From an uncultured Candidatus Saccharibacteria bacterium (GTDB lineage: Bacteria > Patescibacteriota > Minisyncoccia > UBA6257 > 2-01-FULL-56-20): a stretch of DNA of 64,000 bases. The stretch is taken from NCBI GenBank assembly GCA_964360585.1, contig CAYHXC010000006.1:8256-72255 (forward strand), read 5' to 3'. The notes under the pieces were generated by a model. That model worked only from the letters and a program-made list of their open reading frames with translations, was not told where the DNA came from and made no database searches. Of this stretch, positions 999-43,802 are shown piece by piece (positions within the stretch are counted from its first letter, which is position 1; the number at the start of each line of letters is the position of its first letter). Made by a program: the position numbers and the translations under genes.

Positions 999-1667
999 AT
1001 GGAACGAGTATCTATCCTTATTGACGGAAGTAATTTCTACCACTTAGTTCTCAAGAAACTTTCCCTAGAAGAGTCTCAGTTTAACTTCGACGCCTTTGCT
1101 AACTTTCTCGCCAACGGTAGAACCATCACTGAGAAAGGAAAGCGATTCTATACCGGCACAGTCAGAGAAAAAGAAGGGGATGCACGTAGTAGAGTAGCAA
1201 TGAGCAAGCAGACAGCTTTTTTTACTAAACTGAGTAAAGTTAACTGGGAGTTGAAAACGAGCAAGCTGAAAATTCGTTTCGAAGAAATTCATATAGATAA
1301 ACGAGTTGTTGAATACAAAGAATTGCAAAAAGCAGGTATTACCAGGATTACCGTCGAGAGATTGAGAGAAAAAGGAATTGATGTGAAATTAGCTACAGAC
1401 TTGATCGTGGGTGCGGTCGACGATCAATATGACACAGCCATTATCGTCAGTTCTGATTCCGATTTGATTCCTGCAATTGATTGGGTACGTTTGAGGAAGA
1501 AAAAGAAAGTTGAGTATATAGGATTCTCCGTTCTCGATGAAAAGAATCCTAAAAACTCAACAAGGCCGTTACTTTCTTTGATTAATAAAACAGATTTGCA
1601 AAGAACTTTAGTGAAATCAGACCTAGATTCGTTTATAGAGAAAAATCTTTTTACTAAACAGGTCTAG
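999..1667 (+). CDS. NYN/LabA-like (PIN-fold) domain protein, predicted RNase
   Basis: The motifs IDGSNFYH, GIDVKLATDL and SSDSDLIPAI are typical of the NYN/LabA family (PF01936). Confidence 0.75.
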   Translation: MERVSILIDGSNFYHLVLKKLSLEESQFNFDAFANFLANGRTITEKGKRFYTGTVREKEGDARSRVAMSKQTAFFTKLSKVNWELKTSKLKIRFEEIHIDKRVVEYKELQKAGITRITVERLREKGIDVKLATDLIVGAVDDQYDTAIIVSSDSDLIPAIDWVRLRKKKKVEYIGFSVLDEKNPKNSTRPLLSLINKTDLQRTLVKSDLDSFIEKNLFTKQV

Positions 1668-1674
1668 TTTTTTG

Positions 1675-1713
1675 ATGCAAGAATCCATCGGGAAAACGAA
1701 AAATGATCCCGTC
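1675..1713. repeat. repeat family A, short form (A4)
   Basis: ATGCAAGAATCCATCGGGAAAACGAAAAATGATCCCG is near-identical to A1 and A5. Confidence 0.8.
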
Positions 1714-1785
1714 TTTTTAATGGCTTTAGAGGGAGGCTATATACATATTTGACTCTCTTTGGTTTTACGAGAAGAATAAGGCGTT

Positions 1786-2304
1786 ATGAATAACCTACCG
1801 GAAGGAGATACTCCTAAGAATATTGCCTATATTGACGCCGCTAATCTAGATCGTGCTCTCCGGGATCAGCTTCATTGGCAGTTGGATTATGCCAAATTTC
1901 GGGTGTGGCTGAAAGAAAAGTACAAAGTTGAAAAAGCCTATATTTTCATTGGTCTCATCCCAAAGTATAAAAACCTGTACACGTATCTTCAGAACTGCGG
2001 TTTCACCCTTGCCTTCAAGGACGTAGTCTTTCAAAATGGGAAGCCAAAAGGGAACTGTGATTCAGATCTCTTGATGCAAGCCTCGAGCGATTTTTATGAA
2101 GGGAGATTAAAAGAAGCTGTTATCGTCGCGAGCGATGGGGATTATGCCCCATTAGTGAGGCTTCTTCATGATAGAAAAAGTTTGCGCGTGATTCTTTCTC
2201 CCACAAATCCCAAACAGTGCTCCCTTCTTTTAAAAAGAACTGGAGCTCCTATTGCCTATATAAAAGACCAAAGATTGATTTTAGAAGTGGCGAAAGGGTC
2301 TTAA
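1786..2304 (+). CDS. NYN/LabA-like domain protein (second paralog)
   Basis: IAYIDAANLDRAL, KGNCDSDL and ASDGDYAPLV match the conserved acidic residues of NYN nucleases. Confidence 0.7.
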   Translation: MNNLPEGDTPKNIAYIDAANLDRALRDQLHWQLDYAKFRVWLKEKYKVEKAYIFIGLIPKYKNLYTYLQNCGFTLAFKDVVFQNGKPKGNCDSDLLMQASSDFYEGRLKEAVIVASDGDYAPLVRLLHDRKSLRVILSPTNPKQCSLLLKRTGAPIAYIKDQRLILEVAKGS

Positions 2305-2482
2305 AATGAAAAGGCCCCCGATGCGTACGGATCGCATAGGGGTCCTCTTCGTGATGAATGCCTTTATACTATAGAGGTTTTTGTGAAAAGTCAATGATCT
2401 TCATGGTGGATAATTTTTGAGGGAAATTCACTGGGTTAATGGGATTTTTGGGATCTACGTTGCCTTTGATCTACTATTCATT

Positions 2483-2522
2483 ATGCAAGAATTTGTTGGG
2501 AAAACGAAAATTGATCCCGCTA
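2483..2522. repeat. repeat family A, short form (A5)
   Basis: ATGCAAGAATTTGTTGGGAAAACGAAAATTGATCCCGC. Confidence 0.8.
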
Positions 2523-2577
2523 CCGCTGGTTGACACTCTGGGGTGGGAGTGGTAGTTTTTCCTTCAGAAGAGGAGGG

Positions 2578-2820
2578 ATGAGGATGTCTTCGTCAGAAGA
2601 TCCGGCTACAGCCAGAAAAAGTGAAGCTATGCGTATAGCGGCCCAAGAAGGTCACTCTATCGGCAACTGGCGCTTAGAAGGAACCACGTGGCATGGTTCT
2701 TGCACGGAAAAGCAATGCTCTGCCAGGGTCTCGGTCGGTGCCGGACCCCACGGCGGTATTGCAGGCCCAACGATTCGTAAGGCTTGTCCGTATAAGTCGA
2801 GATCAACAACAGTACGATAA
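2578..2820 (+). CDS. hypothetical small Cys-containing protein
   Basis: GGAGGG RBS before ATGAGGATG. A stem-loop plus T-run (AACCGAcccggtcttcggagtTCGGTTTTTT) follows the stop. Confidence 0.35.
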   Translation: MRMSSSEDPATARKSEAMRIAAQEGHSIGNWRLEGTTWHGSCTEKQCSARVSVGAGPHGGIAGPTIRKACPYKSRSTTVR

Positions 2821-2856
2821 CCGACCCGGTCTTCGGAGTTCGGTTTTTTCTTTTTG

Positions 2857-2968
2857 TATCCATCGGGAAAACGAAAAATGATTCTGTTTGGTTTCGGTAC
2901 AGTTTTAATCGAAAAAGTATCAAAACCCAGGATAAGATACCTGTGAACAACTCATTGACTTTTCATCC
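2857..2968. repeat. repeat family A, long form (A6), with a TTGACT-N16-TATATA promoter-like 3' end
   Basis: Near-identical to A3 over about 110 bp. Confidence 0.8.
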
Positions 2969-3077
2969 ACGGCTGTATATAGTAAAAATGTGCTTGTGGG
3001 GCGTCAGCCCTATTCGGCTAATACATAAGCCGAAGGCAGGCACTGCAAAGATACCGCTTCATGCGGTGTTTTTGTTT

Positions 3078-3674
3078 TCAATCTTCATCGGGGTTACCTT
3101 TCATCGTAGTATAAAATTTGGTATCTCTGTATTTGTTCGTAGTCCAAGCTGGCACAACACTCCAGAAGTGCATCGTTCCATTATCGCCAATTTTTCTAAT
3201 AATCACTTTAATTTTGCGGTTATCAACTATAGCAATAATGCCCCAGTATTTTACAGGCCGACTTTTCCTTATTCTCTTTTTAAAACTCTTCACTTCAAAT
3301 TCCTTGAGTGTTTCTTCGAATTCTTGATAGGTGGTAGAATTTTTCACCAATTTAGCCGCTAACGGTAATAACTTAAACCTTAGGATTTGAGAGGGCCGTT
3401 CTCTTTCGGAATGAGATCCTTTGAAAACAATGTGATTGAATCCTTCGGCAGTGAAGTAAATCTCTTGATTAAAGGCAGGAGAAAATATTTTCCCAATGCC
3501 ATTGTAGAAACTATGAGCATCGTCTTTCAGTTTTTCGTAGTTCGATATGTCTTCCATTTGAAAGATACTACTGCACTCTGGTATTCCAATCAAACCAGCG
3601 AATAAAGACCTATCCCATATAGAGGAAAAATGAACTACCACGGACTTACGTCCGTGGTTTCCCGTACAGTTCAA
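3078..3674 (-). CDS. hypothetical protein (start uncertain; alternative ATG at 3557)
   Basis: ORF track. No family recognised and no clear RBS. Confidence 0.4.
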   Translation of the reverse strand: MNCTGNHGRKSVVVHFSSIWDRSLFAGLIGIPECSSIFQMEDISNYEKLKDDAHSFYNGIGKIFSPAFNQEIYFTAEGFNHIVFKGSHSERERPSQILRFKLLPLAAKLVKNSTTYQEFEETLKEFEVKSFKKRIRKSRPVKYWGIIAIVDNRKIKVIIRKIGDNGTMHFWSVVPAWTTNKYRDTKFYTTMKGNPDED

Positions 3675-3686
3675 GCTGCGCTTGTC

Positions 3687-3760
3687 CGCCTGTCATTGCG
3701 AGGGAGTAGAAGCGACCGTGGCAATCTAGATTGCTTCGTCATACTCGCAATGACAGGCGG
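3687..3760. repeat. REP-like extragenic palindrome, family GTCATTGCGAG...GTGGCAATCT (R1)
   Basis: ccgcctGTCATTGCGAGggagtagaagcgaccgtgGCAATCTAGATTGCttcgtcataCTCGCAATGACaggcgg. Perfect outer arms and an inner GCAATCTAGATTGC palindrome. Confidence 0.85.
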
Positions 3761-13492: not shown

Positions 13493-13612
13493 CCCTCACC
13501 CAATAAGCAAAGTATGCGAGAGTAGTACAATGGCAGTACACTTGCTTCCCAAGCAAGAAACGCGGGTCCGATTCCCGTCTCTCGCTCCAAGGTTGCTTAT
13601 TAGGTGAGGGGC
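13491..13612. repeat. 20-bp inverted repeat pair flanking the tRNA (GCCCCTCACCCAATAAGCAA / TTGCTTATTAGGTGAGGGGC)
   Basis: The arms at 13491-13510 and 13593-13612 are reverse complements with 1 mismatch. Confidence 0.8.
13516..13589 (+). tRNA. tRNA-Gly (anticodon CCC)
   Basis: Manual fold: acceptor GCGAGAG/CTCTCGC, D-arm GTAC-AATGGCA-GTAC, anticodon stem CTTGC/GCAAG with loop TTCCCAA, T-arm ...GGGTCCGATTCCC..., discriminator T, CCA encoded. Confidence 0.85.
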
Positions 13613-17081: not shown

Positions 17082-17145
17082 ACCGTTCCATTGACGAAAA
17101 TCAGGAGTTAGTTCAAGCTGGAGACAGTCTCGATTGGGAGGAAAA

Positions 17146-17511
17146 ATGAGCCTACAGACAATTGGCGCTTTGCGGGCAGTCATGATTACCGATGAGCCCA
17201 ATCTCGTCGTCATTCACGGTTTGGAAATTGATTTTGAGGCCAAAGGAGCGAATGTTCGTGATACGCAAGACCAGTTTGAAATAGGTCTTGTGGAGGTATT
17301 TCGGGAACACACGAAGCGCATGGGGGGTATACGCAACCTCTGGAAAGTGGCGCCACCGGAATTTTGGCTTCATGTCGTGGATGGAGCCACCCAGGGAGAG
17401 TTACGCCAAACTCCTCAGCTTTTCCCATTTTCTCATGTTCTCTACCTCCAATCTCCACTTCGTTTGCCGTCACGCCTTCCGCTCAGTTTGGTGGGGCAGT
17501 CAGCAGCCTAG
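17146..17511 (+). CDS. hypothetical protein
   Basis: GGGAGG RBS 5 nt before ATG (MSLQTIG...). Confidence 0.4.
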   Translation: MSLQTIGALRAVMITDEPNLVVIHGLEIDFEAKGANVRDTQDQFEIGLVEVFREHTKRMGGIRNLWKVAPPEFWLHVVDGATQGELRQTPQLFPFSHVLYLQSPLRLPSRLPLSLVGQSAA

Positions 17512-17593
17512 CGATATTCGCTGGGCTTTTTTTATTGACACATGGTAGATTGTTTTCTATTTTAGAACAAGCAAGTATTGATTGGAGGGAAAC

Positions 17594-18064
17594 ATGGATC
17601 ACGTTGTGTCGGCTGAAGTTGCCCATGGCCACACAGTCTTTGGTGTGGAAAATCCCACAGGTCAAGAGAACTGTCATGTCCTTGTAAAAAAGGATCTTAG
17701 TGGAAAGGTGTTGGAGCAGATTCAGGCCGAACACTGGCTGAATCAATGTCCGGTTTGCGAAGGGAATCTCCACGCACAATTAAAATGTTCTCGTGGCAGT
17801 ACATTCCAGGCGAACCTCAACTGGTGGGAAAAGATACGGAGAATGTGTTCTTCGTGCCAGATTATCTGGGAGCTCGTCTGTAGCAACCACACGGAAGAAC
17901 GGGGAGACGGGATGATCACCAGGATGAGTCATAAACTCACTCTTCTCGGTTACAACAACTGTTTCTGTCGGGCACTTGTTTTCCCGAAATTTAATGATGG
18001 AGGCCTTTCCATCCACAGAGGAGTAGGTCACTCCAGACTGAATGTAATCTGCAGGAATCAATGA
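17594..18064 (+). CDS. hypothetical Cys-rich protein (CPVC...C...C, CSSC...C zinc-ribbon-like)
   Basis: GGAGGG RBS before ATG (MDHVV...). Terminator downstream at 18068-18100. Confidence 0.4.
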   Translation: MDHVVSAEVAHGHTVFGVENPTGQENCHVLVKKDLSGKVLEQIQAEHWLNQCPVCEGNLHAQLKCSRGSTFQANLNWWEKIRRMCSSCQIIWELVCSNHTEERGDGMITRMSHKLTLLGYNNCFCRALVFPKFNDGGLSIHRGVGHSRLNVICRNQ

Positions 18065-19800: not shown

Positions 19801-19829
19801 TTGACATTAAGTATATTATAGTATATAAT
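19801..19829 (+). promoter_or_regulatory. consensus sigma70 promoter TTGACA-N17-TATAAT with a ~125-nt structured 5' UTR
   Basis: Perfect -35 and -10. Several short hairpins (AATCGGaaCCGATT) lie before the ATG at 19955. Confidence 0.55.
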
Positions 19830-19954
19830 CTAAAACAGCAAGAGTCATAACCTAACCTACGACAAGAAAGGAGAGTGATCGAGAGGAAACCACGATTTCT
19901 CGGAAGAATCGGAACCGATTATCAACGCTACGAAACAGAAAGGATTGAAAGCAC

Positions 19955-21037
19955 ATGGCATCGAGAAAAAAAGGTGGGGAAGAGAGTAAGAAAACAGTCA
20001 TTCGGCGGAGCACGAAGTTGAGTCCGGAGGCCAGAAAGGTGTTGAGTAGTCTGATCGTCGATAATCTGGAGATTGTCCACGACGAAGTCAAGATCGAGGC
20101 GTCGTACCTGAATGAGCCCGAGAAGATGCGATACAGCGTCTATCTTAAGAAGTTTCTCGTTGATCAACAAGCGAGATTGCTCGACTTGTACGCCTACACC
20201 GATCCGTTCTACTGCGACTTCGATCCCGACTTTGCCGGTGTTGAGTCGGAGGAGTTGGCGGAGCTTCGCAACAACTTCGTTGCCGCCTACTTGAAAGTGG
20301 CGATGGCGGAGTATCCGGGGTCACTTCTGGGATTGCGGCATCTGACCTTCCTTGCCAACTACTGTCTGGTTTGGTTCGAAAACATTTTCGAGAGTCGCGT
20401 TCTCCTCGAGGTCGTGCCCTCGGAAACGACGGATTGCCCGACAGTTGAGTTGCCTGGACCAGATGGTTCGCCGACTTTCTACGCCTGTCGTCATCCGGAA
20501 GGACGGTCATTGATCGATGTTCTGCGGGACAAAGCGGCGCCATACTGGGCAGAGGTGGACGCAAAGGAGAAGGCGGCACTCGAAGCCCAAAAACAAAAGG
20601 ACGCATCAATCCGAGACGAGGCTCGTGCACGTCGCGAACGTGAGGAGCGAGAGTTCAGAGGTGTCGTCGAGAATATCCGCAAGAAGACGACCGGAACGCC
20701 CGAGGACGTTTTCCAGAGGGGCAACGGGTTTGCGCTCATTCGTGTGCCGGGCGTGATCCTCGCCGGCGGTAAGACTACTCGGGAGACCTATCTCCTCGTC
20801 GAAGCTCATCAGAATGGGCGTGGCACGATGCTTCTCGTCCGTAACTGTGTGGGCGAGAACTGGAACGATGTCATTCGTTCCGGCGCTGGCATTCCGGCGT
20901 CATGGGCCTTCCGTGATGGGGAGAGGATCGACTTCGGCCATATTCCCGATGCGCTTCGGGAGCACAGTGAGCGGCTGCACGCCGCGATTCGCGGCCATTT
21001 CCGTCGACAGTACGCGGAACGTTCGCGGAGTAGGTAA
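19955..21037 (+). CDS. hypothetical protein (360 aa), GC-richer than its surroundings
   Basis: ORF track. Own promoter and terminator. No family recognised. Confidence 0.55.
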   Translation: MASRKKGGEESKKTVIRRSTKLSPEARKVLSSLIVDNLEIVHDEVKIEASYLNEPEKMRYSVYLKKFLVDQQARLLDLYAYTDPFYCDFDPDFAGVESEELAELRNNFVAAYLKVAMAEYPGSLLGLRHLTFLANYCLVWFENIFESRVLLEVVPSETTDCPTVELPGPDGSPTFYACRHPEGRSLIDVLRDKAAPYWAEVDAKEKAALEAQKQKDASIRDEARARREREEREFRGVVENIRKKTTGTPEDVFQRGNGFALIRVPGVILAGGKTTRETYLLVEAHQNGRGTMLLVRNCVGENWNDVIRSGAGIPASWAFRDGERIDFGHIPDALREHSERLHAAIRGHFRRQYAERSRSR

Positions 21038-21068
21038 GTTCTGATTTCATTTTGGAAGGAGGTGATAC

Positions 21069-21106
21069 GGGCCTGGTGGATTTCAAATCCCCCAGGCCCT
21101 TTTTTA
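21069..21106 (+). terminator. rho-independent terminator
   Basis: GGGCCTGGtggatttcaaatccCCCAGGCCC followed by TTTTTTAT. Confidence 0.7.
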
Positions 21107-21122
21107 TAAAAAACAGAGGTAT

Positions 21123-21153
21123 TGACTTAATATTTAAATAATGTTAATATAAT
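21123..21153 (+). promoter_or_regulatory. promoter TTGACT-N17-TAATAT (TATAAT 2 nt further)
   Basis: Seen directly upstream of 21193. Confidence 0.5.
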
Positions 21154-21192
21154 CCCGGTTCGTTAGAAATTGATTTTAACTTTTGAAGAGGA

Positions 21193-22059
21193 GTGCAACG
21201 GATAGTTGTGCTTCAGAAAGGATCGACAATGAGTTTCACGGGTTCGGCCACTTCGCAGGTTATCCGTGGAGTGGTCAAGTGGTTCAACGTAACCCTCGGA
21301 TTTGGGATGATCGATGGGGACGACGGGCGGCAGTATTTCGTCGGTAAACATTCGGTGAACGAAGCCGACGAAGTGGTCCAGGCGGGAAAATCTTCTGCCT
21401 TCCGTTTTCTCATGAAGGGTTGGAAGGTCAGCTTCCGATCCGTCTCGACCGAACGGGGATTCGACGCCCTCGACGTGACGCCCGATCGTGAGATCGGGGT
21501 CAGTCGCGAGAAGCCCGACCCTCGCGCCTTCAGTGAGAAGGAAGGGTTCGTCAGGTTGCTGATCGATTCCTTGGGACGTATCAGAGTGGGGAGCGATAGC
21601 ATCTACACCCCCACCATCACCGGGAAGACGGCCGGAACCGCATTCCGCGCTTACCTTCTGGAAGGGAAGAAGATCAACGGCTTCCAGCTGCGACTCCCAG
21701 TGTCGACTACGGACACCTCCTTCGTTCTTCTCAACCAGAACGAAAGGCTGGTGCCGTTCAATCGTTCGGGATACTACCCGGACGTCATGCTCGGGTCGCT
21801 CCTCTGCAAGGTGGAGCGGAACGGCCAAGTCACCCTGTGGCTCATGGGGGTTCGGACTGTGAACGACAGGTCGGCCTACTACATCATGATCGAGCGCCGG
21901 TACTTTCATCGCTACGACTTCACGGACTCGTCCGCGGAGTCACTCCTCGCCCAGACGCCGACCTCCGGAATGAAAAAGGATAATGACCTTTACGTTCCGG
22001 CGATTGCGAAGGGGATCCAGCTCCTGTCGTCGGCATCGGTCGAACAGGCGGTGGCCTAA
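21193..22059 (+). CDS. cold-shock-domain protein fused to a ~220-aa C-terminal domain of unknown function
   Basis: N-terminal GVVKWFNVTLGFGMIDGDDGRQYFVGKHSV matches the CspA RNP1 region (GxVKWFN..KGFGFI). The remainder matches no known family. Confidence 0.6.
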   Translation: MQRIVVLQKGSTMSFTGSATSQVIRGVVKWFNVTLGFGMIDGDDGRQYFVGKHSVNEADEVVQAGKSSAFRFLMKGWKVSFRSVSTERGFDALDVTPDREIGVSREKPDPRAFSEKEGFVRLLIDSLGRIRVGSDSIYTPTITGKTAGTAFRAYLLEGKKINGFQLRLPVSTTDTSFVLLNQNERLVPFNRSGYYPDVMLGSLLCKVERNGQVTLWLMGVRTVNDRSAYYIMIERRYFHRYDFTDSSAESLLAQTPTSGMKKDNDLYVPAIAKGIQLLSSASVEQAVA

Positions 22060-22098
22060 AAGAGATCGGGAGACTCTTATCTTTCTCCCTACAACATT

Positions 22099-22134
22099 GG
22101 GGCCTTGATTCTTCGGAATCAAGGCCCTTTTTTA
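22099..22134 (+). terminator. rho-independent terminator
   Basis: GGGGCCTTGATTcttcgGAATCAAGGCCC followed by TTTTTTA. Confidence 0.7.
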
Positions 22135-22183
22135 TTCCCCTCATTTGTCATTCCGGTCTTTTTCCGCGTAAGATAGGGATACT

Positions 22184-39382: not shown

Positions 39383-41500
39383 ATGAAAAGAATCCTTACG
39401 GTTTTCTTTTCTCTTAGCCTTGTTTTTGCTCTTGCTCAAGTATCTGAAGTTCGCGCCTCAGGAAATGGTCCGTTCTTCACGGGTTGGTCGCCACTTACAA
39501 CTGCCACGGCTACCCAGCCGTACCAGTATGATGTGAATGCTCAGGATCCGGAGAATGATGTGTTAGTTTACAGTCTATTGTCCGCACCAGCTGGTATGAC
39601 AATCGACAGTGCCACCGGAGTAATCTCCTGGACGCCGGATGCCTCACAGGTATCCGCGACGCCGTATGACGTCGAAGTCGAGGTTTCCGATGGTTCGAAC
39701 ACAATCTCGCGACCGTTTCAGGTAACAGTGTCCGGAAGTAATCTCGGTCCATTCTTCATTCAGTGGGCGCCAGTCACGACTGCTACAGCCACCGAGTTGT
39801 ACGGTTATGACGTAAACGCCTTTGATCCGGAAAACGATCCGTTGACGTATAGTTTGGTAACCGCACCGTCTGGTATGACGATCGACAGTTCGACTGGCGT
39901 GATCTCTTGGACGCCCGACATCGCCCAGGTCTCAACGACCCCGTACGATGCCGAGGTTGAAGTTACTGATGGTGTAAATACCATCGCTCGTCCGTTTCAG
40001 GTGACGGTAGCGGCTCCGACTTCCGGTAGTGGAAATCTCGGTCCATTCTTCATTCAGTGGGCGCCAGTCACGACTGCGACAGCCGACCAGCTGTACTGGT
40101 ACGACGTAAACGCCTTTGATCCGGAGAATGATCCGTTGACTTTCAGTTTGGTCAGTTCGACCCCAGCAGGAATCACGATTAACGCTTCGAGCGGTTTGAT
40201 CGAGTGGACACCAACACAAGCTCAAGCTACTTCGACCGCGTACGTGATCAATGTTCAGGTTGCTGATCCGACGCACGCTGTTAGCCGGGACTTTCCGATT
40301 ACGGTGAGTTTGGCGACAACGTCTACCAACATCGGTCCGTTTTTCCAGGGCTGGAATCCACTCACCACTGCTACAGCCACCGTGCCGTACAGTTATGATG
40401 TGAATGCCCAGGACGGGGAGAACGATCCGCTGACCTATACTTTGGTCAGCTCGACGCCGGCTGGTATGACGATTAACGCTTCGAGCGGTTTGATCGAGTG
40501 GACACCCACTTTGACTCAAGCTACTTCGACACCGTATGACGTGACCGTGCAGGTCAACGATCCCTTCACTGCGGATCCGACCCACACGATTCAACGCAGC
40601 TTCCAGATCACTGTAGCCGATGCACCGACTTCGACCACACCAACTTCAACACCGCCGGTTAATCCACCAGGAGGTGGAGGCGGAGGAGGGGGCGGTGGCG
40701 GTGGTGGGGGAGGCGGATCAATCACTTTGGTCCCTTCTTCTAACCCGTCCTGTCCTCCGAACTGTGGTGGTGGCGGACCGATTGGAGTTCCGACCGGAAG
40801 CGTAAATCTTCCGCCGTACTTCGTTGGTTTCAATCCGATCACAGTGGCGCCAATTAACGTTATGTATTTGTACGACGCTAATGCTACTGACCCGGAGAAT
40901 CAGCCGCTCACTTTCAGTATCTTGGAAGGACCGGCTGGTCTTGGCATCCTACCGAGTAATGGCTTGATCTACTGGACCCCGACGGCCAGCCAGGCTCGCA
41001 CCACGCCGTACACGGTTATGGTGCAGGTCTCGGACGGTACGCTCGTGGCCACGACCTCGTATGCGATTACGGTTCCGGTGACGTTGATTGTGACTACACC
41101 TGTAGTCGTGACCCCGACGCCGACCGTTACGCCGATAGGTTCAGGCGATGCGACAACGACTCTTGCGACCACAACCGCTCCGGTTGCGGTCGCACCGAGC
41201 CCGCTCCTCGCTATGCTTACCGGTATCGCTGACTGGTTCCGCGACAATTACTGCGTGATGGGCTACCTCCTGTGGCTCTTGACCGTTCTTGCCTGGCTTG
41301 CCTATCTTCTCTTTGACGAAAGAGAGGAGAGCAAGGACCGAGCGCGAGCGGCCGAGGAGTTGCAAGAAGAGCTTGATGACGTAGCCGATATGGTCGAAGA
41401 ACCGATCATGGCGCATCCGAGCACGCGTTTTTCGGGAGGCTCAACTACGTTTGAGACAACTCCGCAAAATCTCGCGACAGGCCAAGGAAGAGAGGTTTAA
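39383..41500 (+). CDS. secreted surface protein: signal peptide, 6 He_PIG/cadherin-like Ig repeats, G16 linker, C-terminal TM and an acidic tail
   Basis: Repeats GPFF(T/I)(G/Q)W(S/A)P(L/V)TTATAT.PY.YDVNA.DPEND.L.YSL..AP.GMTIDS.TGVISWTP; GGGGGGGGGGGGGGGG at nt ~40670-40717; YLLWLLTVLAWLAYLLF TM. Confidence 0.7.
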   Translation: MKRILTVFFSLSLVFALAQVSEVRASGNGPFFTGWSPLTTATATQPYQYDVNAQDPENDVLVYSLLSAPAGMTIDSATGVISWTPDASQVSATPYDVEVEVSDGSNTISRPFQVTVSGSNLGPFFIQWAPVTTATATELYGYDVNAFDPENDPLTYSLVTAPSGMTIDSSTGVISWTPDIAQVSTTPYDAEVEVTDGVNTIARPFQVTVAAPTSGSGNLGPFFIQWAPVTTATADQLYWYDVNAFDPENDPLTFSLVSSTPAGITINASSGLIEWTPTQAQATSTAYVINVQVADPTHAVSRDFPITVSLATTSTNIGPFFQGWNPLTTATATVPYSYDVNAQDGENDPLTYTLVSSTPAGMTINASSGLIEWTPTLTQATSTPYDVTVQVNDPFTADPTHTIQRSFQITVADAPTSTTPTSTPPVNPPGGGGGGGGGGGGGGGGSITLVPSSNPSCPPNCGGGGPIGVPTGSVNLPPYFVGFNPITVAPINVMYLYDANATDPENQPLTFSILEGPAGLGILPSNGLIYWTPTASQARTTPYTVMVQVSDGTLVATTSYAITVPVTLIVTTPVVVTPTPTVTPIGSGDATTTLATTTAPVAVAPSPLLAMLTGIADWFRDNYCVMGYLLWLLTVLAWLAYLLFDEREESKDRARAAEELQEELDDVADMVEEPIMAHPSTRFSGGSTTFETTPQNLATGQGREV

Positions 41501-41512
41501 AAACCCTAAGAA

Positions 41513-41538
41513 GCCGCTCAGAAATGAGCGGCTTTTTA
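41513..41538 (+). terminator. rho-independent terminator
   Basis: GCCGCTCAgaaaTGAGCGGC followed by TTTTT. Confidence 0.7.
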
Positions 41539-41584
41539 GTTTCTTTTTCGATTTTTCAGTCTTCAGATTTTCTCCATGAATCCT

Positions 41585-41613
41585 TTGACACAATACAAAA
41601 TATGACGTAGAAT
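41585..41613 (+). promoter_or_regulatory. sigma70 promoter TTGACA-N17-TAGAAT
   Basis: Seen directly upstream of gene 41682. Confidence 0.55.
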
Positions 41614-41681
41614 GCGGCCAGTTCCAGATCATCGTCAACTTAAAATTCTGAACCGAAAACTTTGAGAAAGAGGAGGCAACC

Positions 41682-43802
41682 ATGAAATGTGTCAGGATTA
41701 TCGTCATTTTTTTGACGATAGCGTTCCTGGCGGGAGGGGCGGTGGCGCAGTCGAACTGCTTCATTGTTCATTCTGGCCCAGGATGCGACGATCCAGTTTG
41801 CGCGGATAAAGTTTGCGCACTCGATCGTTGCCCGTTCTGCTGCAGCCCCAATAATAAACAGTGGGACACGAGTTGCGCCAATGAGGCGAACGCCTTATGT
41901 CGCGGCACGGCAACGCCGGCACTGACAGTGACGTCCAGCCGGACGATCACCCCGAGCCCAACGGCGACACTTACACCGCCTGACGACAGTACGGTGACGC
42001 CGATACCCACGACAACGTGGACTCGGACAACTGTGCCGTCGGGAACTCCAACGGCAACATTTGTTCCACCGACGTCGACTGTAACGGCGAGTGTGACTCC
42101 GATGGGGACCTTATCTCCATCGGGCACGCCACTGAACACGGCGACGCCAACGTTTACGGCAACAGTAACGTTCACACCGACTCCAAGCGACACACTGACG
42201 CGTACCCCAACCGGGACACGAACAGAAACGGTGACGGGAACGCCAACGAATACGGCAATTCCGACGCCGACTATGACGCGTACGGGAACAACGACACCCA
42301 CACCAAGCGGAGACTGTTGCAGTGAACACGACGAACCGGGATGTAAGATTCCGGCGTGTCAGGCGGCAGTGTGTAATCCGAATGGTATTGGGGATCCTTC
42401 GTGCTGTATGGCGCTCTTCACATCGCCGCATTGGGATGCTTCGTGTGTTGGAGCAGCATTCTTTTATCAAAACGAATGTGGATGCCAAGCTCCAACGCCA
42501 ACAGCAACGGCGACCATGACGGGTACGCTCGTTCCGACGCAGACTCGTACACCAACAATGACGCGAACGCCGACGAACACACGGACCGCAACTGAAACCA
42601 GAACGGCAACGGAAATCCCGGCACCGACGGAAACAGAAGTGCCGACGGATACGCCAGAGCCAACGGAAACATCGGCACCCACGAACACGCGGACGTTCAC
42701 TAAGACGGCCACGATGACGCGGACACCGACATGGACAAAGACGGAAACTACGATGCCGGAGCCGACGGAAACTGAAGCTCCGACAGAAACCCCGGAATCG
42801 ACCGAGACAGCGGTACCGACGAATACTCGGACCGCGACTCGCACTCCGACCTGGACGCGTACACCAACAATGACGCGAACAGCAACGAGAACGCCGACGG
42901 TGGAATCGTCAGTTGGGAGCTGTTGTGAGGCTCACGATACTCCTGGCTGCAATGAACCGGTTTGCGAATCGGTAATCTGCTCCATTGATCCGTTGTGCTG
43001 TCAGCCGAGCGGTATTCGCACAGATTTTGATTTGAGCTGTGCGAGTATTCCGAACGATCCGCGGTATCGGGAGTTCTGCGCTTGCGCACAACAACCGGAA
43101 CCAACAGAAACACCGACCGAGGTATTCACGGCAACGCGGACACCAACATCAACTCGGACAATGACGTTCACGCGGACACCGACTGCCACTAAAACAGCGG
43201 TGGACACTCCGACAGAGACTCCAACGCGTACTCCGACAGATACCAGGACCGACACTCCGACGCGGACACCGACTGATACTTGGACCGAGACTCCAACGCG
43301 TACCCCCAGCGGGACGCGTGAACCGACGGAGACGCGGACGGCTACTCGGACTCCGACAAACACCAGAACCGATACGCCGACTCGGACGGATACTCCGACG
43401 CGGACACCAACGGACACCCGGACGGAGATTCCTTCGCGAACTCCAACTGGGACACGTGAACCAACGGAGACGCGGACATTTACGCCAAGTCGAGTGCCAA
43501 CAGATACGCGCACCGCGACACCGGTCAATCCAACCCGGACACCAACTGCAGGAATGTGTGGTATAAACCCTGTATGTTGGGGCGACTGTGACGGCAACTG
43601 TCGCGTCACGGTCGATGAGATGGTAACCGGAGTGAATCTTCTCTTCGAGAAGGAGTCTCCGACCTTTGAGCCCTGTTTCTTCCAATTCAATCGAAGCAGG
43701 GAACGAGATCCTCGTCGGGCAGTTCCGCCTCCGAGGATTACGGTGGATGAGCTAGTGACAGGCGTGAATAATCTGCTTCACAGCTGCCAGCGACCACAGT
43801 GA
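41682..43802 (+). CDS. secreted Thr/Pro-rich protein with three Cys-rich modules and a C-terminal dockerin-like tandem repeat
   Basis: Signal peptide. Modules CFIVHSGPGCDDPVC...C, DCCSEHDEPGCKIPACQAAVCNP...C, SCCEAHDTPGCNEPVCESVIC...C separated by (TPT.TRT)n linkers. C-terminus GDCDGNCRVTVDEMVTGVNLL ... RITVDELVTGVNNLL resembles dockerin Ca-binding repeats. Confidence 0.65.
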   Translation: MKCVRIIVIFLTIAFLAGGAVAQSNCFIVHSGPGCDDPVCADKVCALDRCPFCCSPNNKQWDTSCANEANALCRGTATPALTVTSSRTITPSPTATLTPPDDSTVTPIPTTTWTRTTVPSGTPTATFVPPTSTVTASVTPMGTLSPSGTPLNTATPTFTATVTFTPTPSDTLTRTPTGTRTETVTGTPTNTAIPTPTMTRTGTTTPTPSGDCCSEHDEPGCKIPACQAAVCNPNGIGDPSCCMALFTSPHWDASCVGAAFFYQNECGCQAPTPTATATMTGTLVPTQTRTPTMTRTPTNTRTATETRTATEIPAPTETEVPTDTPEPTETSAPTNTRTFTKTATMTRTPTWTKTETTMPEPTETEAPTETPESTETAVPTNTRTATRTPTWTRTPTMTRTATRTPTVESSVGSCCEAHDTPGCNEPVCESVICSIDPLCCQPSGIRTDFDLSCASIPNDPRYREFCACAQQPEPTETPTEVFTATRTPTSTRTMTFTRTPTATKTAVDTPTETPTRTPTDTRTDTPTRTPTDTWTETPTRTPSGTREPTETRTATRTPTNTRTDTPTRTDTPTRTPTDTRTEIPSRTPTGTREPTETRTFTPSRVPTDTRTATPVNPTRTPTAGMCGINPVCWGDCDGNCRVTVDEMVTGVNLLFEKESPTFEPCFFQFNRSRERDPRRAVPPPRITVDELVTGVNNLLHSCQRPQ

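Follow-up and report, generated by a model that had tools for sequence, protein, structure and literature searches.

A putative family of cold-shock-domain fusion proteins, represented by a divergent copy next to dnaG in a groundwater Patescibacteria bacterium

Are the two GC-rich genes that separate an ABC transporter from dnaG in a groundwater bacterium recent imports, and what might their products be doing there? The question is raised by a 64-kb stretch of contig CAYHXC010000006.1 (the whole of which is referred to below as the window), which is part of a genome of the Patescibacteria (candidate phyla radiation) recovered from Hainich groundwater, well H51. Patescibacteria have tiny genomes and a poorly understood RNA metabolism. 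The genes in question are g1, which encodes a protein of 360 amino acids, and g2, whose product begins with a cold-shock domain (CSD); they are flanked on the 5' side by genes of an ABC-3 permease and an ABC ATPase, both on the opposite strand, and on the 3' side by the genes of DnaG, RpoD and then AlaS. An initial annotation, which had named these flanks correctly, interpreted the pair as a self-contained insert of horizontally acquired cargo and the g2 product as a potential RNA-targeting effector. Its observations are largely borne out by our analysis and its interpretation is supported in part: as judged from sequence comparisons, g2 reveals a small, so far undescribed family of CSD fusion proteins encoded in a conserved cluster with NYN, LigT and ~320-residue proteins, and the window appears to hold a stripped-down, divergent copy.

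The start of g2 had been placed at a GTG codon (21193), which gives an open reading frame (ORF) of 288 amino acids. An ATG codon at 21229, which leaves 276 amino acids, is the likelier start, because the NCBI gene call, an AAAGGA sequence located 7 nt upstream and the alignment of the family all agree on it; the end of g2 and both limits of g1 remain as they were annotated. At NCBI, a protein identical to the g2 product carries the name 'cold shock domain-containing protein [Patescibacteria group bacterium]'. Its N-terminal CSD, recognized as CspA-like in the initial annotation, is matched by Pfam PF00313 with 32.1 bits, as compared with the gathering threshold of 27 (residues 25-96 of the 288-residue ORF), while the best score against the NCBIfam Csp equivalogs is 31.4 bits, as compared with a cut-off of 120. 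Word-indexed searches with g1 and g2 returned only the queries themselves. An exhaustive phmmer search, in which g1 concatenated with the C-terminal part of g2 was compared with 1.84 billion representatives, retrieved 37 proteins at E<=0.001, one of which (P0010, the protein of a relative locus designated L006) is a relative of g1. Another 33, which are 241-305 amino acids long, all match the C-terminal domain of g2 over the same region, with E values from 5e-49 to 1e-5.

According to the alignment, all 33 of these proteins are built alike, with an N-terminal CSD and, after it, ~190 amino acids, hereafter domain X. They also share a series of recurring motifs, namely FRAY, (F)VLLD, KNPR, GSY, GRRxQ, ERRFxHxYD and QTPTSGxxRDNDGF, and two residues, R224 and N252, are invariant. 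A profile built from domain X alone finds all family genes of the fetched loci without any other match, and matches the window ORF with an E value of 1.7e-58. On the evidence of these alignments, g2 is not an orphan: it is assigned here to a small family of ~33 representative clusters, of which it is a divergent member and which had not been described before; we propose for it the name CSD-X.

The predicted structure agrees with this division into two domains. From the family alignment, AlphaFold models the full-length g2 protein with a predicted local distance difference test score (pLDDT) of 91 and a predicted template modelling score (pTM) of 0.87, and domain X on its own with a pLDDT of 91.8 and a pTM of 0.88. 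In the model, strands 11-20, 25-30, 35-39, 66-74 and 77-85 form a five-stranded OB-fold β-barrel, which is matched by CspA, CspE, CspB and YB-1 with a Foldseek probability of 1.0 and target template modelling (TM) scores of 0.75-0.86, and which is shown rigidly joined to the ~190-residue domain X. The latter is predicted to comprise ~11 β-strands followed by a helical hairpin, with the signature QTPTSGxxRDNDGF in the loop between the two helices. Profile searches and structure prediction had been proposed as a check in the initial annotation; they assign domain X to no Pfam, NCBIfam, PHROG or PADLOC family, no sequence relative was detected in the PDB, and a Foldseek comparison of the confidently modelled fold with the PDB and BFVD gave no match with E<=0.001 or TM>0.25.

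What a protein of this kind might do is suggested by the genes that surround it. Loci of the CSD-X family were gathered by exact-protein look-ups and one metagenome scan (fetched loci are designated by L and a number), and the neighbouring ORFs were clustered. In 12 of ~14 distinct loci with usable flanks (L006, L086, L092, L093, L095, L096/97, L098, L099, L100, L102, L104 and L105), the CSD-X gene adjoins a gene of a LigT-type 2H phosphoesterase and/or a gene of a ~320-residue protein. It is located directly upstream of these two, which are encoded either by separate adjacent genes or as one fused protein of 508-526 amino acids (examples are found in L006, 8398-9950, in L095, 8958-10538, and in L104, 2869-4449). 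The ~320-residue protein, which exhibits QPDT and GGGxFDHH motifs and has no Pfam family, is 52-60% identical across loci, whereas the CSD-X proteins of the same loci are only ~30% identical. A protein with an NYN domain, recognized by Pfam, is often encoded directly upstream of CSD-X (L085, L087, L093, L102 and L104), and in other lineages (L087, L096 and L102) the module is found near ftsH. LigT and NYN are families of RNA-acting enzymes, whose substrates are RNA ends and 2',3'-cyclic phosphates, and on the simplest reading of these neighbours CSD-X would be an RNA-binding or adaptor component of a module for RNA end processing or turnover.

In the reading that we prefer, and to which we give a rough probability of 0.45, CSD-X would serve an RNA end-processing or turnover module as the part that binds RNA or presents the substrate. 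Single-stranded RNA would be held by the CSD; domain X, through its conserved Arg/Lys/Asp-Asn-Asp surface, would contact an RNA end or a nucleotide, or else provide a dock for the LigT-containing enzyme. The module would have entered the junction between the ABC transporter genes and dnaG, by acquisition or by relocation, before the lineages that lead to the window, L005 and L006 separated. Locus L006 would have retained g1, g2, LigT and a gene for a 317-residue protein at the junction; in the window lineage the enzyme partners would have been lost from the locus and g2 would have drifted, with g1 as a presumed companion gene specific to this clade.

A search of the literature found no paper on this gene cluster or on this architecture, which the initial annotation was right to consider rare. 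The likeness to the CspA family (PF00313; CspA, CspE and CspB) lies in the N-terminal ~70 residues of g2, which score above the Pfam threshold and whose model superposes on solved Csp structures with TM scores of 0.8-0.86; the strong promoter and long 5' leader of the neighbouring g1 are likewise reminiscent of csp genes. However, g2 has 276 residues rather than ~70, owing to the extra domain of 190 residues, it scores far below the NCBIfam equivalog cut-offs, and the window copy lacks two hallmark residues of the nucleic acid-binding motifs, the second Phe of RNP1 and the His of RNP2. Multidomain CSD proteins, such as Lin28, YB-1, the CSD modules of RNase R and RNase II and the bacterial CSD-DUF1294 proteins, follow the same logic, in which a CSD lends single-strand binding to a second module, and the CSDs of Lin28 and YBX are among the structural matches of the g2 CSD; domain X, however, is neither a Zn knuckle nor an RNB, S1 or DUF1294 domain. 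With the end-healing systems of LigT/2H phosphoesterases and with NYN (PIN-like) RNases the family is connected by gene order, its members being embedded between NYN and LigT genes; no description of a CSD-containing partner of LigT systems was found in the literature, and the window locus itself contains neither LigT nor NYN.

The copy of g2 in the window is among the most divergent of the family: it deviates from the consensus in 10 of the 42 columns that are strongly conserved, and for agreement in these columns it takes rank 33 among 34 sequences. In the CSD, the two hallmark residues are replaced by F27M and H39G, with LGFGMI in place of the RNP1 motif KGFGFI and YFVGK in place of the RNP2 motif VFVH; both motifs retain their first Phe, and in most CSD-X members the residues that are changed here, the second Phe of RNP1 and the His of RNP2, are present as well. 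The changes in domain X include K172E, R250K, G254L and F255Y. Besides, no homologue of LigT, of the ~320-residue protein, of NYN or of the other genes of the L006 block was detected anywhere in the 64 kb, and g2 is followed by dnaG where most family members are followed by the LigT and/or ~320-residue protein genes. One could thus suppose that g2, and perhaps g1, is a decaying remnant that has been under relaxed selection, and devoid of any specific function, since the loss of the LigT and ~320-residue partners. Yet both ORFs are intact and have kept strong promoters, Shine-Dalgarno-like sequences and terminators, as well as a strong codon bias, the AlphaFold model of the window sequence is a confident one, and the locus was recovered from well H51 in four independent assemblies, at 100% identity; the partners, for their part, may lie elsewhere in the genome. 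We regard decay as quite improbable. An intact, well-signalled and strongly codon-biased g2 may be drifting or changing its role.

For g1, the initial statement that the protein has no recognizable family holds for Pfam, NCBIfam, PHROGs and PADLOC; there is also no relative among PDB profiles, phages or plasmids. The protein is soluble; its N-terminus is basic, its middle part is a charged helical stretch and its C-terminal third is β-rich. Its sole relative in the exhaustive search is the L006 protein mentioned above. The reading frame is conserved with that of L006 over the full length (E 3e-22), and because of this conservation and of its third-position bias g1 is considered a real gene. 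Comparisons with hhalign between g1 and the NYN proteins, domain X and the proteins L094-338, L096-503 and L005-346 gave no significant pairing; the best of them, with L005-346, is collinear with an E value of 0.014 and is unproven. Three of the assemblies of well H51 (L001, L003 and L004) break inside g1, at ~20432-20566 and within ~130 nt of each other, and the sole contig that spans this zone is L002. At a coverage of ~5x, the breaks may be due to chance or may mark strain-level variation.

A comparison of the junction among relatives, which the initial annotation had suggested, indicates that the pair interrupts a conserved arrangement. We took 80 loci anchored on DnaG from species-representative genomes. 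A shared backbone runs tRNA-Gly / ABC permease / ABC ATPase / dnaG / rpoD / alaS, and in six relatives (L007, L008, L009, L016, L019 and L026, with DnaG proteins 50-63% identical to that of the window) the ABC ATPase gene abuts dnaG, with a gap of ~60-150 nt. Since the relatives share this backbone, the g1-g2 block is best described as an insertion relative to it. The insert is hardly self-contained, however: in L006, one of the two closest relatives, which comes from a complete 808-kb chromosome and has a DnaG 73% identical to that of the window, the junction is occupied by a larger block of 6.3 kb, which comprises genes of an inositol monophosphatase, a β-CASP RNase, homologues of g1 and g2, LigT (Pfam E 8e-15) and the 317-residue protein. 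Unrelated cargo is found at the junction in L010 (8432-10001), L022 (9148-10001) and L024 (3169-10001), including a Ser-rich protein of 1545 residues in the last of these, and the comparison thus identifies the ABC-dnaG junction as a site of recurrent gene gain. The window and L006 proteins are 26-29% identical for g1 and 46% for g2, while the flanking proteins are 69-94% identical; by this measure both genes evolve much faster than their neighbours.

Rapid divergence at a hotspot is also what one would expect if g1-g2 were a fast-evolving conflict cassette, a defence or toxin system whose CSD targets nucleic acid and of which other lineages carry alternative versions. Such a version could be sought in L005, where positions 1518-3688 encode a different pair at the same site, a protein of 346 amino acids on the minus strand and one of 284 amino acids, both non-homologous to g1 and g2 and very rich in G+C at third codon positions (GC3). 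The 284-residue protein has an N-terminal region of ~200 amino acids without assignment and a C-terminal CSD of ~50 amino acids, which is the reverse of the domain order in g2; this CSD is of the g2-family subtype, with 51% identity to the L092 CSD over 47 residues. No relation was found between domain X and the N-terminal region. CSD effectors do exist in retrons, and g2 exhibits a weak similarity to the NCBIfam family retron_eff_Se72 (NF038236; 22.9 bits) and to the PADLOC model CSD_V. These matches, however, reflect generic CSD similarity, with a cut-off of 82 bits for the former, and the size and architecture of g2 are different; neither a retron RNA in Rfam (msr/msd) nor a reverse transcriptase among the ORFs that neighbour g2 was found, nor is there a nuclease or ATPase partner, and PADLOC has no model for g1 or domain X. 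Moreover, g1 and g2 are transcribed separately, each up to a terminator of its own, in which they differ from the usual toxin-antitoxin or defence operons, and the constant neighbours of the family are RNA enzymes of housekeeping type and ordinary composition. We therefore find a conflict cassette hard to credit, and the idea of an RNA-targeting effector gains nothing from defence models beyond the generic CSD match.

The unusual composition of the two genes, on which the suggestion of horizontal acquisition was founded, is real. Their G+C content is 0.56 (g1) and 0.58 (g2), as compared with 0.485 for the window; the GC3 of g1 is 0.65 (z 2.1), a value equalled by two other ORFs of the window, and that of g2 is 0.74 (z 3.5), the highest of ~66 ORFs. 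If the pair were foreign cargo, recently received from a GC-richer donor or a mobile element and not yet adjusted in composition, this would explain the GC3 outlier together with the interruption of an otherwise conserved adjacency, the different cargo at the junction in L005, L010, L022 and L024, and the presence of a second window-specific block just past a tRNA-Gly gene, 6 kb upstream. But L006 holds both genes at the same site at the low level of identity given above, and because of this the pair is taken to be old in the clade. The GC3 excess, too, recurs in many unrelated backgrounds. In L006 the homologues of g1 and g2 have GC3 values of 0.78 and 0.79, as compared with ~0.47 for their neighbours, and the partner genes are ordinary (0.41 for LigT and 0.46 for the 317-residue protein gene); the non-homologous pair of L005 has 0.80 and 0.87 against a background of ~0.45; the values are 0.85-0.86 in L085 and L087 and ~0.70 in L094, L096 and L099, and in several CSD-X loci a second uncharacterized neighbour is similarly GC3-rich. 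The shift consists chiefly in the use of NNC over NNT, AAG over AAA and CAG over CAA.

High GC3 is thus a family trait, seen with these genes in most genomes that we examined, and it is no proof of recent transfer. Nor does the locus carry the usual marks of mobility: no integrase or transposase ORF was detected near g1-g2, the only tRNA gene is that at 13516 and none is found at the junction, the flanking direct repeats are at chance level or consist of terminator tails, and searches of phages, plasmids, IMG/VR and PHROGs yielded no relative. With genomic islands and hotspots the site shares broken synteny, atypical composition and variable cargo; it differs from them in the lack of an integrase, a junction tRNA and direct repeats, and in cargo that is shared with a relative with 73% DnaG identity and whose composition is much the same across the loci of the family. 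Recent transfer, and with it the initial proposal of imported high-GC cargo, is unlikely. What would fit the data best is that the module was acquired at this junction, or relocated into it, long ago, in the common ancestor of the clade formed by the window, L005 and L006. Because the GC3 trait follows the family across backgrounds, together with the strongest promoters, we favour selection on expression or mRNA over fresh import; the GC3-rich codons and the consensus promoters would most simply reflect selection tied to high expression or to properties of the mRNA.

Several points weigh against the interpretation of CSD-X as part of an RNA end-processing module with an old presence at this junction. 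Its function is read from gene neighbourhood alone, and domain X revealed no catalytic or binding motif that belongs to a known family. The resemblance of the ~320-residue protein to DHH/MYG1-like phosphoesterases is a reading of motifs that is unconfirmed by Pfam, NCBIfam and PDB profiles. The partners are absent from the window, so that the neighbourhood argument fits the family and not directly this copy, whose CSD is, in addition, devoid of the two classic nucleic acid-stacking residues. The closest relative, L005 (DnaG 81% identical), has a 5-kb block at the junction from which g1 and g2 are missing and in which the other pair is found instead, and a scenario of vertical descent thus needs a replacement event. 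As far as composition is concerned, the GC3 excess is weak or modest in L102, L104 and L105, and the 64 kb contain no ribosomal-protein or EF-Tu genes that could serve as a codon-usage reference for high expression.

The signals that surround the two genes are listed in Table 1. The perfect promoter of g1, pointed out in the initial annotation, is the only TTGACA-N17-TATAAT in the 64 kb, where 0.01 would be expected; a promoter of its own had been claimed for g2 as well, and here the candidate site is a weaker one. In L006 perfect consensus promoters precede both homologues, with a terminator hairpin in between. Among 1.42 Mb of fetched DNA, perfect sites number 15, of which four are located directly upstream of these genes (g1 of the window, both L006 genes and the L102 gene). 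Both terminators proved to be as strong as had been supposed: the hairpin of g1 (21069-21099) with its T-run has a folding energy of -23.5 kcal/mol (z -3.9 as compared with shuffled sequences) and is kept in L006 at the matching position, and that of g2 (22099-22128) with its T-run has -23.6 kcal/mol (z -5.1). Taken together, these features show that g1 and g2 are two real, separately transcribed chromosomal genes of a Patescibacteria bacterium, and they are probably strongly expressed.

Table 1. Coordinates of g1, g2 and their predicted domains and signals in the window
Feature	Position	Strand	Description or basis
g1	19955..21037	+	360-residue ORF; family restricted to the window clade
g2	21229..22059	+	276-residue CSD-X protein
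g2 cold-shock domain	~aa 13-85 (21265-21483)	+	Pfam PF00313
g2 domain X, novel, β-rich, with C-terminal helices	aa 87-276 (21487-22056)	+	family alignment and model
g1 promoter	19801..19829	+	perfect sigma-70-type TTGACA-N17-TATAAT
g1 5' leader	19830..19954	+	~120 nt; carries the block ACCTAACC-N9-AAAGGAG at 19850-19873
g1 intrinsic terminator	21069..21105	+	13-bp interrupted GC-rich stem plus T6
g2 promoter-like site	21122..21150	+	TTGACT-N17-TAATAT, 9/12 matches, extended TG
g2 intrinsic terminator	22099..22134	+	13-bp perfect stem, UUCG loop, T6

The leader of g1 had been described as structured, which our calculations do not support: it folds no better than shuffled sequences (z -0.30), and the same is true of the g2 leader and of both leaders in L006. 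An alignment of the g1 leaders of the window and L006 reveals the common block ACCTAACC-N9-10-AAAGGAG. A riboswitch or an RNA thermosensor, for which a check had been recommended, was rejected on the grounds that the leaders have no excess folding stability and match no Rfam family. A short upstream ORF that would start with a GTG codon 1 nt past the AAGGAG block was rejected as well, owing to its spacing and its lack of conservation in L006. The sole Rfam match, to suhB/mmgR at positions 22068-22142, is below the threshold (25 bits, with a gathering score of 41) and overlies the terminator hairpin of g2; it is most likely a false positive. An identical 14-mer, AGGCCCTTTTTTAT, ends the 3' halves of both terminators (21094-21107 and 22122-22135), which may reflect a common terminator design or a duplication.

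Two other regions of the window are worth recording. The tRNA-Gly(CCC) gene at 13516-13589 is followed by a block of 4.5 kb (to 18064), located 6 kb upstream of g1-g2, which encodes a Thr/Ser-rich protein of 489 residues, a PG_binding_1 protein of 302 residues, LemA and the orphan ORFs 17134-17511 and 17582-18064. The block is missing from L006 and L007, where the tRNA gene abuts the ABC-3 permease gene, and it represents a second lineage-specific insertion, this one adjacent to a tRNA. At 39383-43802 two adjacent proteins of ~705 residues are encoded with an unusually high G+C content at second codon positions (0.53 and 0.68); He_PIG and Big_9 Ig-like repeats make up the first, and the second is without a family.

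Our preferred interpretation, a CSD-X RNA module that entered the junction long ago and whose partners were lost in the window lineage while g2 drifted, could be taken further. Domain X might adopt a fold that is truly new and be the subunit that defines an undescribed Patescibacteria module for RNA end processing or repair, consisting of NYN, CSD-X, LigT and a ~320-residue protein with DHH motifs, and the window/L005/L006 clade might be dismantling this module and recombining the CSD with new domains and companions (g1 and L005-346) at a single hotspot; in this strong form the proposal is possible, although rather doubtful. For scans of genomes, the locus carries a caution: GC3-rich genes that look like inserts need not be recent imports, since their composition can travel with the gene family. 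It also illustrates the turnover of a putative module beside dnaG-rpoD, in which partners appear to have been lost, the CSD reshuffled and companion genes replaced. Above all, the cluster of CSD-X, LigT, NYN and the ~320-residue protein gives a concrete and testable clue to a new activity in RNA processing or repair in these bacteria, and possibly to a new protein fold.

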